From an uncultured delta proteobacterium (GTDB lineage Bacteria > Desulfobacterota > Desulfobacteria > Desulfobacterales > JAHEIW01), in the NCBI GenBank assembly GCA_963706575.1, contig CAVPNL010000006.1, forward strand, positions 704,001-768,000: a stretch of 64,000 bases of DNA, in the 5' to 3' direction. Shown here in pieces: positions 9,899 through 57,846 of the stretch. The notes below the pieces were generated by a model. The model was not told the DNA's origin. It searched no databases and saw only the letters and a program-made list of their open reading frames with translations. How positions within the stretch are numbered: the first letter of the stretch is position 1; every line of letters starts with the position of its first letter. Both the position numbers and the translations under genes were made by a program.

Positions 9899-9988
9899 AT
9901 TTCGGAATGCAGATTTCGGATTTCGGATTTTGAATATGCGACATGTTTGATACTTCAATCTGCAATCCGCAATCTAAAATCTGCAATT
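9899..9988. repeat. Inverted 7-mer cassette, family B (GATTTCG / AATCCGC arms)
   Basis: ATTTCGGAATGCAGATTTCGGATTTCGGATTTTG - spacer - CAATCTGCAATCCGCAATCTAAAATCTGCAATT. Confidence 0.8.
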
Positions 9989-10656: not shown

Positions 10657-10746
10657 AATTGCGGATTTTAGATTGCGGATTGCAGATTGAAATATCAAGC
10701 GCGTCGCGAATTAAAAATCCGAAATCCGCAATCTGCATTCCGAAAT
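10657..10746. repeat. Inverted 7-mer cassette, family B (reverse orientation to 9899-9988)
   Basis: Near-exact reverse complement of 9899-9988, including the spacer. Confidence 0.8.
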
Positions 10747-10795
10747 CTTATTTGCTCCAACACACCGGCTATTTGCTTGAATAGAATAAAAACGA

Positions 10796-16488: not shown

Positions 16489-16560
16489 GCACCCAGTTTT
16501 CTTAACCCTTTTTATATGATGCTCTGTCTCTGTCGTCCGCAGAGCTCCGGCAATTTGCAA

Positions 16561-16720
16561 GGCAGGTCTTCTGGCTTTCGGATCCGTCTACTAACTGCGC
16601 CTTCCCACCTGGCTTTAACCAGACAGTGGCATGGTGCAGCATTCGTCCCCGATTACAGCGGCGGGACCACTCCCGATTTTAACGGGATTCCCTTTTAAGC
16701 CCAACAGGCACCTTGATTGC
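16561..16720 (-). ncRNA. Cobalamin riboswitch upstream of btuB
   Basis: Minus strand AGGTG...AAAAGGGAA...CCCGCCGCTGTAA...GCCACTG...GGGAAGG...AGCCAGAAGACCTGCC (B12 box). Confidence 0.93.
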
Positions 16721-16761
16721 CTAATATGTAAACTTAAAATGTTTGTCAAGGACAAACATTC

Positions 16762-16866
16762 AGTGTTTAGTATTTGGTGTTTAGTGTTTAGTAGAACGGC
16801 TATGACGTTATTTCAATTTGTCAGCATCCTAAACACCAAACACCAAACACTAAACACCAAACACTA
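16762..16866. repeat. Inverted 7-mer cassette, family A (TGTTTAG / CTAAACA arms), no cargo gene
   Basis: (GTGTTTA)n - 35-nt spacer - (CAAACAC)n. Its right end includes the btuD stop codon. Confidence 0.85.
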
Positions 16867-19602: not shown

Positions 19603-19687
19603 AGTGTTTAGTGTTTAGTATTCTAACAAATTGATATAATGTCACTCACGTTATACTAAACACCAAACACGAAACACTAAAACACTA
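19603..19687. repeat. Inverted 7-mer cassette, family A, no cargo gene
   Basis: AGTGTTTAGTGTTTAGTA - spacer - TACTAAACACCAAACACGAAACACTAAAACACTA. The spacer is homologous to the reverse complement of the 16762 copy's spacer. Confidence 0.85.
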
Positions 19688-19730: not shown

Positions 19731-19883
19731 CTGCACCCAGTTTGCTTGACCCTTTTTTATGTAATGCCAGTCCTCTGTCTTTCGCAGAGTGAGACCGCTG
19801 CCAAACACCCTTTTTTGCCCCATTTCATCTTGCGGCAAAAATGCGCATTTTTCAAAGGTCTCAAAACGATGGCAATCTGGCAA

Positions 19884-20068
19884 GGCAGGTCTTCTGACTC
19901 CCCCGCCCTTTTAGCAACCTTCCCATCCCGATTGGTCGAAACAGTGGCATTCGCGGCTAAAAGGGTTCTCTCTTTGTCCATAGCACACAACAAAAAGAGC
20001 AGGGTTACAGCGGCGGGACCGCTCCCGGCTTTAACGGGATTCCCTATTAAGCATACGCACCTTATTCC
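19884..20068 (-). ncRNA. Cobalamin riboswitch upstream of btuFCD
   Basis: Minus strand AGGTG...AATAGGGAA...CCCGCCGCTGTAA...GCCACTG...GGGAAGG...AGTCAGAAGACCTGCC. Confidence 0.93.
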
Positions 20069-20266
20069 CTGAAAATATCTTTTAAGGGAAAATCGGTTTC
20101 AAGTCAACAAAATTAAGTTGACAAAGGTTTGAGGTTTATTTAATTGGGTTTTAAAAATACAAATCAAAAATCTGGTGGTTCCTTTTTTTTAAATAAAACT
20201 GCTTTGAAATTGCCAGATTTTGTTCGTGAGCTCGACGCAATTCGCTTCATAAGCGGAGCATACACC

Positions 20267-20392: not shown

Positions 20393-20580
20393 GCTGTCGG
20401 GCAAAAGATGGTAATTTATAAACAGTTTTAGGGATAATAGGGAAACCGGTGTAAAACCGGTACGGACCCGCCGCTGTGTTCGGGGACAAAACCCGCAGGT
20501 TGCCACTGGCTCGTTGCCAAGCGAACCGGGAAGGTGCGGGGAGTAGGTCGATCCGAAAGTCAGAAGACCTGCCAACAGAT
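20393..20580 (+). ncRNA. Cobalamin riboswitch upstream of cobT
   Basis: AATAGGGAAACCGGTGTAAAACCGG...CCCGCCGCTGTG...GCCACTG...GGGAAGG...AGTCAGAAGACCTGCC. Confidence 0.93.
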
Positions 20581-20602
20581 TTGGGTTTGGGGAGATGGTA
20601 AA

Positions 20603-24347: not shown

Positions 24348-25205
24348 TTATCTGACTTCTGATTTCTGACCTCGGTTATCTGTCCTCCGACCCCTGTCTT
24401 CTGTCTTCTGACCGCTGCCTTCGTCCTCGGTTCTCTTTCTTCTGTCCTCTGGCCCCTGTTTTCTGTCGTCTGTCATCTCATGGCGATGAGGATAGACACC
24501 ATGTTCGTGGGCATGGACATGCTCGTGGAGGTGTAATTCTTTGTCCAGAAGAATTTTGCCGTCCGCCATCGTGTAAATGGCGCCAACAGTTTCGGCCAGA
24601 AAGTCAAAATCATGGGAAATGAGTAAATACGAGAGATCTAGGCCGGACATAATTTCATTTGAGTTTGGTCTTGGTCTTTGTGTCCAGGCCGTTGACGGGT
24701 TCGTCTAGAAGCAGAATTTCGGGTTCCATGGCCAGAGACCGTTGCCAGAGATACCAATCGTTTTTCGCCACCGGACAACTTAAAGGTTATGCGGTCTTCA
24801 AATCCGTTCTAGACCAAGAAAATCCAGGGTTTCTTGAGCGATTCGCATGGCTTCATTTTTGGGTTTGCCCAGATTCAAGGGACCAAAGGCCACGTCTTCC
24901 AGCACGGTCGGGCTGAAAAGCTGATCGTCGGCGTCCTGAAAGAGAAGGCCGATCTTGCGGCGAACATTTGCAAAGTCTCTTTCGTCTCTGGTGCGCTTTC
25001 CGAAGATTTCGATGCGGCCGGCTGTCGGCTTTAGCAATCCCATAATCAGGTGCAAAAGGGTGGTTTTGCCGCTGCCGTTAGGTGCGATTAAACCGATCCG
25101 GTCCCCCCGCTTAAATTGAAAATCAAGTTGATTAAGTACCGGGGGACCTCCAGGGTAGTTAAAAGACACACCTTCAAGATTTATTATCGGATTATTTTCG
25201 TTCAT
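24348..25205 (-). CDS. cbiO: Co/Ni ECF transporter ATPase with a His-rich tail (frameshifted ~24650-24810)
   Basis: APNGSGKT and FQDADDQLFSPTV in 24798..25205. LSGGEK and LLLDEP are visible in the intervening DNA. ISHD and LHLHEHVHAHEH lie in 24348..24650. Confidence 0.85.
24350..24476. repeat. Degenerate 7-mer tract (ACAGAGG/ACAGAAG on the minus strand), translated as the CbiO tail
   Basis: TCTGACTTCTGATTTCTGACC...TCTGTCCTC...TCTGTCTTC. Encodes the periodic peptide EDRRKRTEDEGSGQKTEDRGRRTDNRGQKSEVR. Confidence 0.65.
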
Positions 25206-38577: not shown

Positions 38578-40243
38578 ATGAAACAGAAAATACGTGATCT
38601 AATTCTCAGTGCGGCTAAAAGCGCCTATGAAAAAAGGAGATTTGCCGTCAGCTGACATTTCCGAGGTTGAGGTTGAAGAGCCCGGGCTGATGCCCACGGA
38701 GATTTTTCTAGCAATATTGCCATGGTGATGGCATCGGCTCAAAAAATGGCGCCGCGTAAAATTGCGGAAGCCATCATTGCTCACATTCAAGATCCGCAGG
38801 AATTGATTGAAAAGACTGAAATCGCCGGTCCGGATTCATTAATTTTTTTGTCAAACCAGTCGGCCTGGCACCCGGTTTTGCGTGAGATTCACGAAGCCGA
38901 TACCGCCTACGGTGCAACCGATATCGGTAAAGGTCAAAAATTTCAGGTCGAATATGTCAGCTCCAACCCCACCGGACCGCTGCATGTCGGTCACGGCCGC
39001 GGTGCGGCCGTGGGTGACGCGGTGGCCAATATTCTTTCCTTTTGCGGCTATGATGTCCAAAAGGAATATTACATCAACGATTCGGGCCGGCAGATCCGGA
39101 CCCTGGGGCAATCGGTTTTTCTGCGCTATCAGGAGCTGTGGGGCCAAAAAGTCAAATTCCCGGATGAATGCTATCAGGGGGATTATATTCGTGATCTGGC
39201 TGCCGACATCAAAACCCGCAAAGGCGCTGGCCTTTTAAGCGAGCCGGAACAAGACGCCATTATGGAATGCGCGCGCTTTGCCGCCGGGAACATACTGGAC
39301 GGCATTCGGGACGATTTAAAATTATTCGGGGTCGAATTTGACTGCTGGTTCAGTGAACAGAGCTTATATGATTCCGGCCGCGTGGTTGAGATTCTTGATA
39401 ATTTTCGCAAACAGCAGATTATTTACGAAAAAGACGGGGCCCTGTGGTTTAAAACCAGCGATTTCGGTGATGAAAAGGATCGGGTGGTGGTTAAAGCCAA
39501 CGGCGAAACGACCTATTTCTGCATCCGACATCGCCTACCACCAGGACAAGTATGACCGTGGGTTTGAATGGGTGGTCGACGTCTGGGGAGCGGATCATCA
39601 TGGTTACATTCCCCGGATGAAAGCCGCCGTTGAAGCCTCCGGGCATCGGCGGGATCAGTTTGATGTCATTTTGGTGCAGCTGGTGAATTTGCTCAGAGCC
39701 GGGCAACCGGTTGCCATGTCGACACGGGCCGGCAAATTCGAGACCCTGCGCGAGGTTATCAACGAAGTGGGCCGGGACGCCGCGCGCTTCATCTTTTTGA
39801 CCCGCCATTATGAAAGCGCCCTTGATTTTGATCTGGAAGTCGCCAAGCAAAAAACCAATGATAATCCGGTTTATTATGTTCAATATGTGCATGCCCGCAT
39901 CTCGAGCATCGTGCGCAAGGGAAACGAACGGGGGACCTGCGAGGTTTCCTGGGATGACAAGGCCGTGGCTCGCCTGGAGGCACCTGAGGAAATTGATTTG
40001 ATTAAAGCCCTGGCGCGCTATCCGGATGTCCTGGCAGGCAGCGCCAGAAGCATGGAGCCGCATCGTGTGACCTATTATTTGATGGACCTTGCATCGGCCT
40101 TTCACACTTACTACAATAAGCACCGGGTTTTAGTCGATGATTCGTTGTTGCGCTGCGGTCGGCTCAATCTTGTTTTAGCGGTTCAAAAAGTAATCCGAAA
40201 CGGCCTGACGCTGCTGGGCGTTTCTGCCCCGGACAGTATGTAA
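38578..40243 (+). CDS. argS: Arginine--tRNA ligase (several apparent frameshifts)
   Basis: [42 protein letters not shown] and LGVSAP. The N-terminus MKQKIRDL starts at 38578. Confidence 0.92.
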
Positions 40244-41200: not shown

Positions 41201-41343
41201 GTCCGAAAGCAGTCTTTTTACCAGTGTGTTTAGTATTTGGTGTTTAGTGTTTAGTAATCTAACATGCAGATATAGGATCATATATTTCATGCCAAACACC
41301 AAACACGAAACACAAAACACTTGTTGAATTCGACTTTTTACGA
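41201..41343. repeat. Family A 7-mer cassette inside a MITE-like shell
   Basis: (TGTTTAG)n - ATCTAACATGCAGATATAGGATCATATATTTCA - (CAAACAC)n - GAATTCGACTTTTTACGA. Near-identical to 57694-57846. Confidence 0.85.
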
Positions 41344-41861: not shown

Positions 41862-43322
41862 ATGGAATTATTTGAGTTAACAATAGAAAAGGCTCACCGG
41901 TTATTAAAAACCAAAGAAATATCTTCGGTGGAGTTAACCCGCGCGGTATTGGATCGCATTGACACAGTGGAAGGAAAAGTTGATGCGTTTATTACGGTCT
42001 CGGAAAAAACTGCAATGGAACAGGCGAAAGAAGCAGATCAAAAGATTGCCAGCGGTCATTGTGAGTCGTTGACCGGAATTCCGCTTGCCATCAAAGATGT
42101 CATCTGCACCCGGGGCGTGCCAACGACATGCGGCTCTAAAATTCTTGAAAATTTTGTGCCGCCCTATAATGCCACGGTAATCGGCAAACTCAACAAAGCG
42201 GGGGCGGTAATTGCCGGTAAAGCAAACATGGATGAATTTGCCATGGGCTCGTCCACCGAAAACTCGGGTTACAAAATTACCCGCAACCCCTGGGATCTGG
42301 CCTATGTGCCGGGCGGATCCAGCGGTGGCTCGGCAGCTGCGGTTGCCGCCGATATGTGCCTGGGCGCTTTAGGCTCGGATACGGGAGGGTCCATCCGGCA
42401 GCCGGCGTCATATTGCAGCACGGTGGGCATGAAACCGACCTACGGACGGGTATCCCGATACGGACTGGTGGCGTTTGCATCCTCTCTGGATCAAATCGGG
42501 CCTCTGGCAAAGAATGTCTCGGATTGCGCCATAATGCTCAAGGCGATCGCCGGTTATGATTCTGCAGATTCTACGTCCGTTTCCCGGGAGGTGCCTGATT
42601 ATACCGCTGCTTTACAAAAGGGATTAAACGGCGTCCGGGTGGGTATCCCCAGAGAGTACAACGCCACTGAGGGAATCGATTCCGAAGTGTCGGCGGCAGT
42701 CGATAGCGCTGTCAAGGTGATCGAGGATCTGGGTGCTGAAAAAATGGAGGTGTCCCTGCCGCATACCGAATATGCTGTGGCCGTATACTATGTGATTGCG
42801 CCCTCAGAGGCAAGCTCAAATCTGGCGCGCTACGATGGCGTTAAATACGGCATGCGGGACAAAAATCAAACCGACATGATTAAAATGTACCGCAGCACGC
42901 GCTCTCATGGTTTCGGTCCCGAAGTTCAGCGGCGCATCGTTATCGGGACCTACTGCCTTTCGGCCGGCTATTACGATGCTTATTACGGCAAAGCCTCCCA
43001 GGTGCGGACTTTGATCATGGAGGATTTTGCCAAAGCGTTTGAAAAATGCGATGTGCTGTTATGCCCGGTGGCCCCGACACCGGCATTTAAAATCGGTGAG
43101 AAGGTTGATGACCCGCTGACAATGTACCTGTCGGACATTTTCACCATTTCGGCAAACCTGGCCGGGATCCCCGGTATGTCGATCCCCTGTGGATTTTCAA
43201 AACAGGGCCTTCCCATCGGGCTGCAATTAATGGGCAAGCATTTTAACGAAGAGATGCTTTTTAAAGTGGCCTATAATTTCGAACAGGCTACGGATTTTCA
43301 CAAAAAAAAACCCGACCTGTAG
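41862..43322 (+). CDS. gatA: Asp/Glu-tRNA amidotransferase subunit A
   Basis: Amidase signature GGSSGGS...[20 protein letters not shown]. Confidence 0.97.
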
Positions 43323-43418
43323 CAAAGCGCAAAGCGCATGAAACAAAGCGGCATAGCGTTTCTATTTGCCTATTTTTCTTTTTTTAACTCTTTGCGCTCT
43401 GCGCCATGCGCTATGCTT
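43320..43418. repeat. Inverted 7-mer cassette, family H (AAAGCGC / GCGCTAT arms)
   Basis: TAGCAAAGCGCAAAGCGCATG...GCATAGCG - spacer - TTTGCGCTCTGCGCCATGCGCTATGCT. Begins at the gatA stop codon. Confidence 0.7.
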
Positions 43419-43460: not shown

Positions 43461-43643
43461 ATGACCACCGTACAACCGGAAGGTGAAGATTTAAGAAGAG
43501 CCGTCAAATGGATTTCTGAAGAACGCAAATTTAATCCGGAGGCCCAAACATCCAAGCTTATCGAGGAAGCCTGTCTGAAATTCGATCTGTCGCCGATGGA
43601 TGCGGAGTATCTTTTAAAGTTGTTGAAGAAAGATCGTGTTTAG
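43461..43643 (+). CDS. Small hypothetical protein (60 aa)
   Basis: RBS AAGGAG; helical, protein-like sequence (GEDLRRAVKWIS...KFDLSP). Its stop codon lies within the repeat arm. Confidence 0.75.
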   Translation: MTTVQPEGEDLRRAVKWISEERKFNPEAQTSKLIEEACLKFDLSPMDAEYLLKLLKKDRV

Positions 43644-44089
43644 TGTTTTGTGTTTAGTGTTTAGGGAGGATAAAAAATGGCTTTTGTGCGATTTGAAGAT
43701 CTCAGAGTTTTCAAACTGGCTGAAAAATTATGTGATGATATTTGGGGTATCGCAATATCCTGGAAGTATTTTGAGAAAAACACAGTTGGTATGCAACTCG
43801 TAAAGGCTGCGGATAGCATCGGTGCTAATATTGCAGAAGGCGCCGGCAGAGGAACACCCAAAGATAACAAGCGATTTGTCAGAATTTCTAGAGGGTCTTT
43901 GAATGAAACAAAATATTGGCTTCGAAGGTGCATAAGGCGGGGTTTGATTAACGATAAGCAAAGCGATTTTTTGCGGGAAATGATCGACGAATTAGGTCCA
44001 AGCCTTAACGCATATTTGAAATCCATTGGAAGAGATAAGTAGATCCAAACACCAAACACCAAACACGAAACACCAAACACCAAACACTA
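43635..44089. mobile_element. Family A inverted 7-mer cassette carrying a four-helix-bundle gene
   Basis: Left arm CGTGTTTAGTGTTTTGTGTTTAGTGTTTAG (43635-43664). Right arm CCAAACACCAAACACCAAACACGAAACACCAAACACCAAACACTA (44045-44089). Confidence 0.7.
43677..44042 (+). CDS. Four-helix-bundle protein (23S rRNA IVP / Avd-like family)
   Basis: FEDLRVFK, QLVKAADSIGANIAEG.GR and F..ISRGSL.ET.YWL. RBS GGAGG. Confidence 0.9.
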   Translation: MAFVRFEDLRVFKLAEKLCDDIWGIAISWKYFEKNTVGMQLVKAADSIGANIAEGAGRGTPKDNKRFVRISRGSLNETKYWLRRCIRRGLINDKQSDFLREMIDELGPSLNAYLKSIGRDK

Positions 44090-44092
44090 TCC

Positions 44093-45847
44093 ATGCCCAA
44101 AATACAAATACTCCCCGAAACGTTATCCAACAAAATTGCGGCCGGTGAGGTGGTTGAACGGCCGGCTTCAGTGGTCAAAGAATTGCTGGAAAATGCGCTG
44201 GATGCCGAAAGCACCCGCATTATCGTAGAAGTCGAAAAAGGCGGCCAGTCCCTGATTCAGGTCTCCGACAATGGCGTCGGCATGAATCACGCGGATGCGC
44301 TTTTAGCCATCGAGCGTTACGCCACCAGCAAAATATCCAGCGATGATGATTTGTTTGCCATCCGCACCCTGGGCTTCAGGGGTGAAGCCCTGCCCAGTAT
44401 TGCCTCGGTATCGCGCTTTCTACTGATTACCCGCGATAAGTCATCAGATGCCGGCACGGAGATCATTGTTGACGGCGGCAAAACAAAAAGTGTCTCTGAG
44501 GTCGGGGCCCCGGTGGGAACCATGATTTCGGTCAAGCAGCTATTTTTTAATACACCGGCCCGCAAAAAATTTTTGAAAACGGTCGGCACCGAGATGAGCC
44601 ACATTGCCGATACCGTTGCCCGCATGGCCCTGGGCCGTCCCGGGGTGCAGTTTCGCCTGAGCCACAACAATAAAACCGTTAAAAGCTGGCCGGCGGTTTC
44701 ACAGCATCTCGACCGGGTGGCGGATGTGCTTGGCAAAGATTCCCGGCCGGATCTGCATGCCATCGAATTTAACCGCAACGGCCTTTCGATATCCGGCTGG
44801 ATCTGTTCTCCGCGGGTGACGCGCCGCACCTCCCGGGGGCTCTATATCTTTGTCAACGGCAGGTTCGTACGCGACCGGACGATCCAGCACGGTATCTTTA
44901 AGGGATTTGCGCAGCGCCTGGTCAAGGGGCAATTCCCCATCGCCGTTGTTTTTATCAAAATTCCCTTTGATCAGGTGGATGTCAACGTGCATCCGACCAA
45001 AAATGAAGTTCGCTTTGTAAACCCGCACGCGGTGCATGAAGCCGTAAAAAGCGCCATCGCCCAGAGGCTGTATGAAGTCGATCGCCTACAATGGGGCCGA
45101 TCAAATTATCCGGCGGCCAATACGACACCCAAATTCGGACAGGTTTCAGAGGCGGTCAAAGGCGATTTCGGATTTCGGATTTCGGATTTCGGAATTAAAA
45201 ACAGAGGACCGAGAACAGCAGCCAGCAGCCAGAGGAACCAGGAGCCGATCTTTGACACCAAAGGCTTTAGCGCTTTAAGGGTGGTCGGCCAGCTGCACAA
45301 CACCTATATTGTGTGTGAATCCGATGCCGGTCTGGTGCTCATCGACCACCACGCCGCCCATGAGCGCATTCTCTATGAACAGCTCCGGCGGCGTGCCGCC
45401 GATCAGCCTTCTGCCGCCCAGAAGCTTGTGGTGCCCGAAACCCTTGAGTTAAATTTCAGCGAAGCCGAGATCCTGGGACAGATGATGTCGGATTTAAAGA
45501 CCCTGGGATTGGAGATTGAACCGTTTGGCAAAAATACCTTTGTCGTCAAGGCGGTACCGCTATTGCTTGCCGGGCGGGACGTCAGACCCCTGATTTATGA
45601 AATCGTTGAGAAAACCGCGGCGGCGGGCGGTTCAGCGGGTTTGAAGGAGGTTCTGGATGAGTGCCGCAGGGTGATGGCCTGCCATGGGGCCATGCGGGCC
45701 AATCAGACGCTTGACGGCCAACAGATCCGGAAGCTGCTTGAGCAGTTGGATGACTGTGAAAACCCGTCCCATTGCCCCCACGGACGGCCCACCTGGGTCC
45801 GCTGGGACCTGGACACCCTGGAAAAATCGTTTAAGCGTGTTGTTTAA
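44093..45847 (+). CDS. mutL: DNA mismatch repair endonuclease MutL
   Basis: IAAGEVVERPASVVKEL, GFRGEAL, DVNVHPTK, DHHAAHERILYE, ACH and CPHGRP. Confidence 0.97.
   Translation: MPKIQILPETLSNKIAAGEVVERPASVVKELLENALDAESTRIIVEVEKGGQSLIQVSDNGVGMNHADALLAIERYATSKISSDDDLFAIRTLGFRGEALPSIASVSRFLLITRDKSSDAGTEIIVDGGKTKSVSEVGAPVGTMISVKQLFFNTPARKKFLKTVGTEMSHIADTVARMALGRPGVQFRLSHNNKTVKSWPAVSQHLDRVADVLGKDSRPDLHAIEFNRNGLSISGWICSPRVTRRTSRGLYIFVNGRFVRDRTIQHGIFKGFAQRLVKGQFPIAVVFIKIPFDQVDVNVHPTKNEVRFVNPHAVHEAVKSAIAQRLYEVDRLQWGRSNYPAANTTPKFGQVSEAVKGDFGFRISDFGIKNRGPRTAASSQRNQEPIFDTKGFSALRVVGQLHNTYIVCESDAGLVLIDHHAAHERILYEQLRRRAADQPSAAQKLVVPETLELNFSEAEILGQMMSDLKTLGLEIEPFGKNTFVVKAVPLLLAGRDVRPLIYEIVEKTAAAGGSAGLKEVLDECRRVMACHGAMRANQTLDGQQIRKLLEQLDDCENPSHCPHGRPTWVRWDLDTLEKSFKRVV
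45164..45191 (+). repeat. Perfect (GATTTCG)4 tandem repeat in the mutL linker
   Basis: GATTTCG GATTTCG GATTTCG GATTTCG, read as DFGFRISDFG. Confidence 0.9.
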
Positions 45848-46126
45848 ATCAAGGAGCTTGCATGGTTGTCGATGCTTTAAAATAAATTGTGGCAATAGGG
45901 TGCCGAACGTTAAAAGCGGTAAAAAAATTATCACGAAAGCACGAAATTTTGTTTTTTTCGTGTTTTAATTCTTTCGTGCTTAAAGATCACTTTTTATCGC
46001 CATATTTTATTCCAGCGGGACTTCACTTCGAAGGGATAATGCGCCGCTATCAGAGATTTTTATTTTGATGTTCATGATAAGTGGATTTTCAATAATTTAA
46101 AAGGCTTAAATAAATCGCAAAAAAGC

Positions 46127-52763: not shown

Positions 52764-52900
52764 AAGTCAGAAAGCAGTCTTTTGCGAGAGTGTGTTTCGT
52801 ATTTAGTGTTTGGTGTTTAGTATTCCAACATGCCGATATAGCATCACCTATTTCATACCATAAACCAAACACCAAAAACCAAACACGAAACACCAATCAC
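52764..52900. repeat. Family A 7-mer cassette, no cargo gene
   Basis: AAGTCAGAAAGCAGTCTTTTGCGAGAG-(TGTTTRG)n-TTCCAACATGCCGATATAGCATCACCTATTTCA-(CAAACAC)n. Confidence 0.8.
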
Positions 52901-56513: not shown

Positions 56514-56573
56514 AAATTGATGGGTCATTTTTTTCCTGGTTAAATCCGCAATCTGCAATCTAAAATCTAAAAT

Positions 56574-57693: not shown

Positions 57694-57846
57694 TCGTAAA
57701 AAGTCAGAAAAGCGTCCTTTTTACGAGTGTGTTTTGTATTTGGTGTTTAGTGTTTAGTATTCTAACATGCAGATATAGTATCATATATTTCATACCAAAC
57801 ACCAAACACGAAACACCAAACACTAGATGAATTCGACTTTTTGCGA
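57694..57846. mobile_element. Family A 7-mer cassette inside a complete MITE-like shell (153 bp)
   Basis: Outer TIR TCGTAAAAAGTC / GACTTTTTGCGA encloses (TGTTTAG)n - spacer - (CAAACAC)n. Confidence 0.85.

Follow-up and report, generated by a model that had tools for sequence, protein, structure and literature searches.

What kind of element is the small gene that lies directly upstream of mutL in an uncultured delta proteobacterium (Desulfobacterales; assembly GCA_963706575.1), enclosed by inverted arrays of a 7-nt unit? The locus is part of a stretch of 64,000 nt (contig CAVPNL010000006.1, positions 704,001 to 768,000), here called the window. A preliminary description, made from the sequence alone, regarded it as the loaded form of a mobile or mRNA-intervening element with five empty copies in the window.

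The cassette at the mutL slot

The gene order around the slot is gatC-gatA-small ORF-4HB-mutL, 4HB denoting the four-helix-bundle gene.

43461..43643, + strand: upstream host ORF, 60 codons, conserved, without Pfam or NCBIfam match
43636..43664, + strand: left arm, about 4 units (4.1) of GT[G/A]TTTN (array detection in the sequence)
43663..43669, + strand: clear SD-like sequence serving the 4HB gene (sequence)
43677..44042, + strand: 4HB gene, TIGR02436/PF05635, 121 aa (profiles, structure model)
44045..44087, + strand: right arm, about 6 units (6.1), inverse of the left arm (array detection)
44093..45847, + strand: mutL, the host gene that follows the slot (sequence, profiles)

The gene is held between inverted 7-mer arrays, as first described. 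The arm unit is GT[G/A]TTTN, its seventh base being free. The arms had been called complementary; their units are inverse, but position 7 is mostly mismatched and the complementarity is imperfect. When the loaded form is folded, a 29-nt stem encloses the gene (z -2.45). No SD-like sequence precedes the mutL ATG (44093) in the window allele. The right arm ends 3 nt before this ATG, as reported, if a partial complement is counted; from the last full unit the distance is 5 nt. The TAG stop of the upstream ORF does lie inside the left arm. The overlap is incidental, because the stop precedes the arm in relatives G004 and G006, and a functional meaning was rejected. A promoter and terminator scan remained at chance level.

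Several neighbouring features were observed besides. The unannotated 60-aa ORF (43461-43643) recurs throughout the order, being conserved in the gatA-mutL interval of 25/30 loci. Another heptamer doublet (43322-43416) lies between gatA and this ORF, and contig C20 carries a different one; the same slot holds cassettes of GxxExxY genes in relatives G004, G007 and G008. In-frame heptamer arrays occur within the mutL linker (45164-45232), where locus L002 has a different array, and directly after mutL lies a gene-less doublet with arms of the GxxExxY type (45930-45979). The arginyl-tRNA synthetase gene (38722-40243) is broken into two overlapping frames, and several further window genes look similarly fragmented, probably by assembly errors.

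Gene-less doublets in the window and the genome

The window holds five pairs of the same arms without a gene. None has an assigned strand.

16762..16864: gene-less doublet, 39-nt spacer (arm scan, folding)
19603..19687: gene-less doublet, 39-nt spacer (arm scan, folding)
41226..41320: gene-less doublet before gatC, 39-nt spacer (arm scan, slot comparison)
52792..52900: gene-less doublet, 46-nt spacer (arm scan, folding)
57695..57845: gene-less doublet (arms 57729-57823, 39-nt spacer) nested in an outer inverted repeat

The five empty copies of the preliminary description were recovered at 16762, 19603, 41226, 52792 and 57729; the spacers measure 39, 39, 39, 46 and 39 nt instead of about 35 nt, lengths that depend on the arm definition used. 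The pairs fold with z-scores of -3.0 to -8.9 on both strands. The doublet at 57695-57845 belongs to the youngest-looking subfamily.

The genome (5.67 Mb) contains 79 arms (40 left, 39 right), 64 of them paired; an order-4 Markov simulation of 3 Mb produced 3 arms by chance. Within 600 nt, 32 left-right pairs were counted, two with and 30 without a gene, and no right-left pair. One 39-nt spacer family is common to 18/32 empty cassettes at dispersed sites, and 12 of the 14 spacer families are singletons. The five window spacers bear no resemblance to the 4HB gene. The doublet itself has therefore been copied. The notion that the empty copies are scars left by excision of this gene was rejected on the same observations. 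Repeated de novo addition of units was also rejected, because unit variants follow one another in the same order in the copies.

Genome-wide, arrays of 7-mers (488) and 9-mers (154) outnumber those of 6-mers (72), 8-mers (63) and 10-mers (6). The two enriched lengths are the periods of the 4HB and GxxExxY arms. Part of an outer inverted repeat is present in 12/17 members of the main empty subfamily, and the outer repeat is absent from 11/15 cassettes outside it. All seven short outer-repeat pairs surround window-type arms; the outer motif taken singly shows no enrichment, so that the information comes from the short pairs alone. In the relative G019, a similar outer repeat surrounds a different palindrome. 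The outer repeat may be the unit that moved in the youngest subfamily.

Joints across the gene in reads (8 of 24 runs, shallow and too divergent) had arm-length support only and carried the spacers of other empty cassettes. No RNA contig from these shallow, divergent reads covered the 4HB gene.

Other heptamer arrays in the window lie at 9899-9987, 10658-10747, 24348-24478 and 56543-56573; the first two are array pairs that resemble the arms of a 4HB paralogue at C4:480473. Cobalamin riboswitches were located at 16544-16730, 19867-20079 and 20394-20590, and two of the empty doublets are nearby in this B12 uptake region. On contig C1 (80700-81250), heptamer doublets flank a short ORF that reads, by eye, like ribosomal protein S19.

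The four-helix-bundle protein

The protein matches TIGR02436 with 90.8 bits (cut-off 24) and PF05635 with 97.3 bits, above the curated cut-off. Its predicted structure (pLDDT 93.6) is closest to Xcc0516 (2GSC, TM 0.89) and also resembles BT_0352 and Avd. The TM-score of 0.75-0.79 to Avd bears out the Avd-like fold proposed before. The protein is basic (pI 9.6), and a basic homopentamer is predicted from the five-chain entries 2GSC and 2RLD and from Avd. Purifying selection acts on the gene (dN/dS 0.07-0.16 in six of ten pairs, the other four being saturated).

Profile and structure comparison yielded no nuclease or transposase family match, and the profile search no match to Y1_Tnp. The window had been said to lack a transposase. 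In agreement, none was matched among 81 ORF references, most of them from the window, in several profile scans, one of them at a strict E of 1e-20, and tblastn with a RAYT found none either. Elsewhere in the genome, Y1_Tnp has six matches; the whole genome has four of GxxExxY and eight of TIGR02436, the last with arms that differ by eye. A tblastn search with the 4HB protein matched none of 50,697 phage records; it matched 11 plasmid records.

Coupling of gene and arms across phyla

About 185 matches were obtained in 41 genomes. From these, 89 high-scoring loci of relatives were taken together with seven paralogues of the window genome; an ORF was recovered at 91 of the 96 loci, and complete flanks at 85. 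Flanks of 150 nt were scored for an inverted match (cut-off at least 24), with control ORFs drawn from 5057. Inverted flanks were found at 54/85 4HB loci, compared with 29/1500 control ORFs and 47/1262 cross-pairs; direct repeats between flanks occurred at 7/85. The 31 loci scoring below 24 include one whole clade in which either side of the gene has a palindrome of its own. This 138-aa clade without cross-gene arms comprises G000:C4:622300, L051, L072, L075, L085, L092 and L099.

A distant set comprised 160 loci with proteins 52-82% identical, 133 of them with full flanks. By title, they belong to Planctomycetota, Acidobacteriota, Cyanobacteria, Verrucomicrobiota, Chloroflexota and others. 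Scores of at least 24 were reached by 88/133 (52/78 genome loci, 36/55 metagenome loci). Period 7 was present in 86 of these 88, with a mostly related unit. The cross-pair count is high in this set (336/1319) because the unit is common to many loci. The enrichment of flanking inverted 7-mer arrays around homologues, a check set by the preliminary description, thus appeared in both sets, measured against the 29/1500 controls.

Arm sharing was compared among 157 dereplicated proteins after removal of 33 same-slot pairs. Arms were common to 76% of 160 pairs in different slots at 70-80% protein identity, to 51% of 985 pairs at 60-70% and to 22% of 210 pairs at 50-60%. Below 40% identity the share was 1-2%. 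In a tree of 78 rows and 129 columns (24/75 branches strongly supported, 18 distant rows chosen at random), the window protein falls within a 100/99 clade having GT-N-N-K-T-N arms. The window arm type accompanies close homologues at the mutL slot (L201, L202, L204-L206) and at other slots (L121, L123, L129, L187, L203), including one in a Planctomycetota genome. The neighbours of the homologues are unrelated ordinary host genes (85 families among 115), and 50/67 4HB cassettes lie between co-oriented genes.

The GxxExxY genes (TIGR04256; L313-L342) have inverted flanks in 23/28 loci, mostly of 9-nt units, and would represent a parallel system with a PD-(D/E)XK nuclease-family protein. Arms of another type, different from the 4HB arms, flank each of the RAYT and GxxExxY genes that were examined. 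The coupling of gene and repeat is widespread, with one arm type per protein branch, and is well supported.

Within 68 loaded loci, unit positions 3-5 co-vary between the arms (0.69, 0.68 and 0.85 versus 0.51, 0.45 and 0.42), a pattern that would fit base pairing and two binding sites of one protein alike and does not separate them. Position 7 is under-paired in the window genome (7/44 versus 0.32, spacer redundancy removed) and slightly over-paired in a distant clade (0.43 versus 0.34). An inner-register test in the window genome was marginal (10/44, P ~0.05). Arms most often have four units (40/62). No strand bias was detected in G-U pairs (149 versus 173) or in stem stability (33 versus 40 loci, P 0.48), and a sense-strand RNA stem was rejected. 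The proposal of an mRNA-intervening element is weakened, because the stems lack the sense-strand preference that such an element should show.

Occurrence of doublets and of the matching gene

Cyanobacterial heptamer arrays are named STRR. An empty-cassette pattern for Cyanobacteria was derived from the arms of the distant homologues and applied to 121 genomes from the phylum of a Nostoc genome. All 11 genomes with the 4HB clade carry 7-110 overlapping matches to it. With the centre genome dropped, empty cassettes occur in 10/10 genomes with the clade and 11/110 without, related genomes not being independent; among genomes of at least 3.5 Mb the counts are 10/10 and 11/46. The gene match contains a stop in three of the 11 clade-positive genomes. 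Two clade-negative genomes have 47 and 59 cassette matches. Five cassette-bearing, clade-negative cyanobacteria were checked and had other 4HB types only.

Doublets and matching gene, strongly associated in the cyanobacterial sample, correspond poorly among the relatives of the window genome. Of 41 genomes, 26 carry the empty pattern and three a close gene (at least 84%); most of these assemblies are fragmented and several lack mutL. Relatives G015 and G018 have cassettes, and something else occupies their mutL slot. The empty-cassette pattern family was found in two of five hand-picked distant genomes having the gene.

Turnover of the slots

The assembly holds three versions of the mutL locus, on contigs C6 (the window), C20 and C19. 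C6 and C20 have an identical 4HB coding sequence and right arms of 6 versus 5 units. C19 carries a Y1 transposase between REP-like palindromes in place of the 4HB cassette, and differs also in the last codons of the small ORF and the first codons of mutL. Contigs C10, C19, C20, C24 and C25 are alternative haplotypes, and at many intergenic gaps they differ because members of several palindrome families have been swapped.

For the mutL slot, 30 loci were fetched; 25 had both anchors, 24 of them from relatives. These 24 hold two intact 4HB cassettes, three 4HB remnants, two lone right arms, three RAYT-like genes accompanied by REPs (identified from their similarity to the C19 protein), two REPs alone, three other short-unit arrays and nine short spacers. 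Among the remnants, one shows an internal deletion with both arms kept and belongs to another family. Stable, repeat-free synteny of the 4HB gene with mutL is thus not found in these relatives. At the gatC slot (15 loci), the empty doublet occurs three times, a loaded GxxExxY cassette three times, its deletion forms four times and other sequence five times. The deletion series at both slots demonstrate, as far as sequence comparison reaches, that empty forms arise from loaded ones by internal deletion. By the same comparisons, 4HB, RAYT and GxxExxY cassettes evidently exchange at the same slots.

Among the comparisons listed, no clean insertion boundary or target duplication appeared at three slots across relatives or haplotype contigs. 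Precise empty sites at the orf-mutL junction, which had been suggested as a check, were likewise not found in relatives. An exchange of alleles by homologous recombination therefore contributes.

Comparison with known systems

REPIN-RAYT systems resemble the 4HB cassette most. In the passages that describe them, a small gene lies within its own inverted repeats, gene-less doublets are numerous and intergenic, several gene-repeat pairs occur per genome, and the same slots are used (PMC3116915, PMC3733652). Each 4HB cassette gene, like a RAYT, has its own repeat type. The RAYT protein is an HUH Y1 transposase, whereas the 4HB protein is all-helical with an Avd fold. REPs are self-palindromic, while each 4HB arm is a tandem 7-mer array whose only pairing partner is the opposite arm. 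REPtrons and TIRtrons, as treated in the relevant passages, comprise tyrosine transposases only (PMC3733652, PMC3116915).

In 23S rRNA intervening sequences with an S23p ORF, a homologous gene is looped out by a terminal stem. The passages on Coxiella describe a homologue, a terminal stem, tandem heptamers upstream of the ORF, and excision by RNase III, the arrangement not being generalised there (PMC4990558). The window cassette differs in lying between protein genes. No rRNA was matched in the window, where Rfam yields only the three cobalamin riboswitches.

Avd, the accessory protein of diversity-generating retroelements (DGRs), shares fold, basic surface and predicted pentamer with the 4HB protein. 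In the DGR complex, according to the sections describing it, all five Avd protomers contact an imperfect stem-loop RNA, with flipped bases in the clefts between protomers (10.1101/2023.10.23.563531). Identity to Avd is 13-16%, and no reverse transcriptase is adjacent here or was found among the neighbours of homologues (60/115 scanned). A 6.4-kb self-comparison gave arm matches and allelic copies only. DGR membership was rejected, the sole reverse transcriptase match of the genome lying on contig C4 (301693-302349) and not beside the 4HB gene. The flanks of that match look like a group II intron.

The heptamer arrays of Xanthomonas, Nostoc and Beggiatoaceae are likewise abundant, intergenic and of unexplained origin. 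In the parts concerned, Xanthomonas arrays often form convergent pairs and Beggiatoaceae arrays stand just before start codons without SD; those passages and supplement rows contain no link to 4HB or IVP genes (PMC4692102, PMC4679880). The Xanthomonas table includes an array at the start of XCC0516, a 4HB protein of solved structure, listed without inverted partner (PMC4692102). IVP genes inserted in cas operons are mentioned in a further source (PMC3936711). MITEs and insertion sequences share short, non-autonomous forms with inverted ends; unlike these, the 4HB cassette has no target duplication, no fixed ends and no transposase in its loaded form. The cassette fits no known family tested; it has the layout of RAYT-REPIN with an unrelated, Avd-fold protein. 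No publication tying the TIGR02436/PF05635 family to repeat doublets was found in a search that left most subscription journals outside, and a prior description is possible.

Interpretation

The dispersed gene-less doublets and the gene-arm coupling across phyla uphold the early distinction between a loaded and an empty element. The best explanation, with a probability of roughly 0.55, is that gene and arms form one cassette moved between unrelated sites, and that the Avd-like protein likely reads its own repeat and helps gene-less copies to spread, in the manner of RAYT and REPIN. The arms would form a hairpin in single-stranded DNA. The pentamer would bind it and read its 6-bp helices, with the unpaired seventh bases lodged between subunits in the manner of Avd on DGR RNA. 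The protein would then recruit a nuclease or polymerase of the host or of another element, or use an unrecognised active site, and the doublet would be copied at the DNA level. Homologous recombination within the host genes on either side would in addition carry whole slot alleles from strain to strain. Cassettes of this kind would have the 23S rRNA intervening sequences as one of their landing sites. A mobilising role of the 4HB protein is supported by analogy only, since RAYT and GxxExxY genes, with the same layout and slots, belong to nuclease families.

The protein could instead be an RNA-binding regulator. Arm stems in mRNA would then govern how the downstream gene is translated, how stable its transcript is or how RNase III processes it, and the arrays would be a regulon spread by recombination. 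Avd does bind an RNA stem-loop in the passages describing it (10.1101/2023.10.23.563531), and RNase III cuts out the homologue-encoding Coxiella sequence with heptamers in its stem region, as that part of the source states (PMC4990558). The location of 50/67 cassettes between co-oriented genes fits as well, as does the right arm that replaces the mutL SD, reminiscent of the SD-less start-codon arrays of Beggiatoaceae. Such regulation is nevertheless unlikely: stem stability has no sense-strand bias (33 versus 40 loci, P 0.48), the neighbours have no common function, and the slots turn over fast between close strains. Moreover, the distribution of empty cassettes over tandem, convergent and divergent gaps is close to background (19/4/4 versus 2024/456/520, crude ORF calls).

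The arms might also be moved in trans by a RAYT, a GxxExxY nuclease or a mover of the outer repeat, the 4HB gene being cargo or a modulator that only binds. Candidates exist in the genome (six Y1_Tnp and four GxxExxY matches). All 7/7 short outer-repeat pairs surround these arms, G019 has a similar repeat around a different palindrome, and cassettes also occur where the matching gene was not found. This account is a little harder to credit than an RNA regulator. The arm unit tracks the 4HB clade across phyla, the examined RAYT and GxxExxY genes have their own, different arms, and the outer repeat is absent from 11/15 cassettes outside the main subfamily.

Origin of the arrays in place by slippage and template switching, hitchhiking with the gene and involving no element, would agree with the unit number varying between near-identical copies (6 versus 5) and with the 12/14 singleton spacer families, but is very improbable and, on sequence grounds, appears largely refuted by the clade-specific units, given also the single arm order (32 versus 0), the 18 dispersed copies with a common spacer, a unit that persists next to proteins of 55-70% identity from different phyla, and enriched unit lengths (7 and 9) that match the 4HB and GxxExxY arm periods.

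The gene-repeat coupling is well supported, the mobilising role being inferred. A wider proposal, to be held tentatively, is that TIGR02436 proteins are the mobilisers of a large undescribed element class behind the heptamer excess and the ORF-bearing 23S intervening sequences. Their pentamers would read their own 7-mer stem and drive copying without known transposase chemistry, Avd would be a member recruited by DGRs, and GxxExxY would form a parallel 9-mer class. If true, this would join a very common protein family that still lacks a function to the puzzling abundance of bacterial 7-mers and to the way in which ORF-bearing rRNA intervening sequences arose. The table of protein clades and repeat units gives direct predictions for binding, and under the wider proposal the TIGR02436 family would constitute a natural set of programmable repeat readers.
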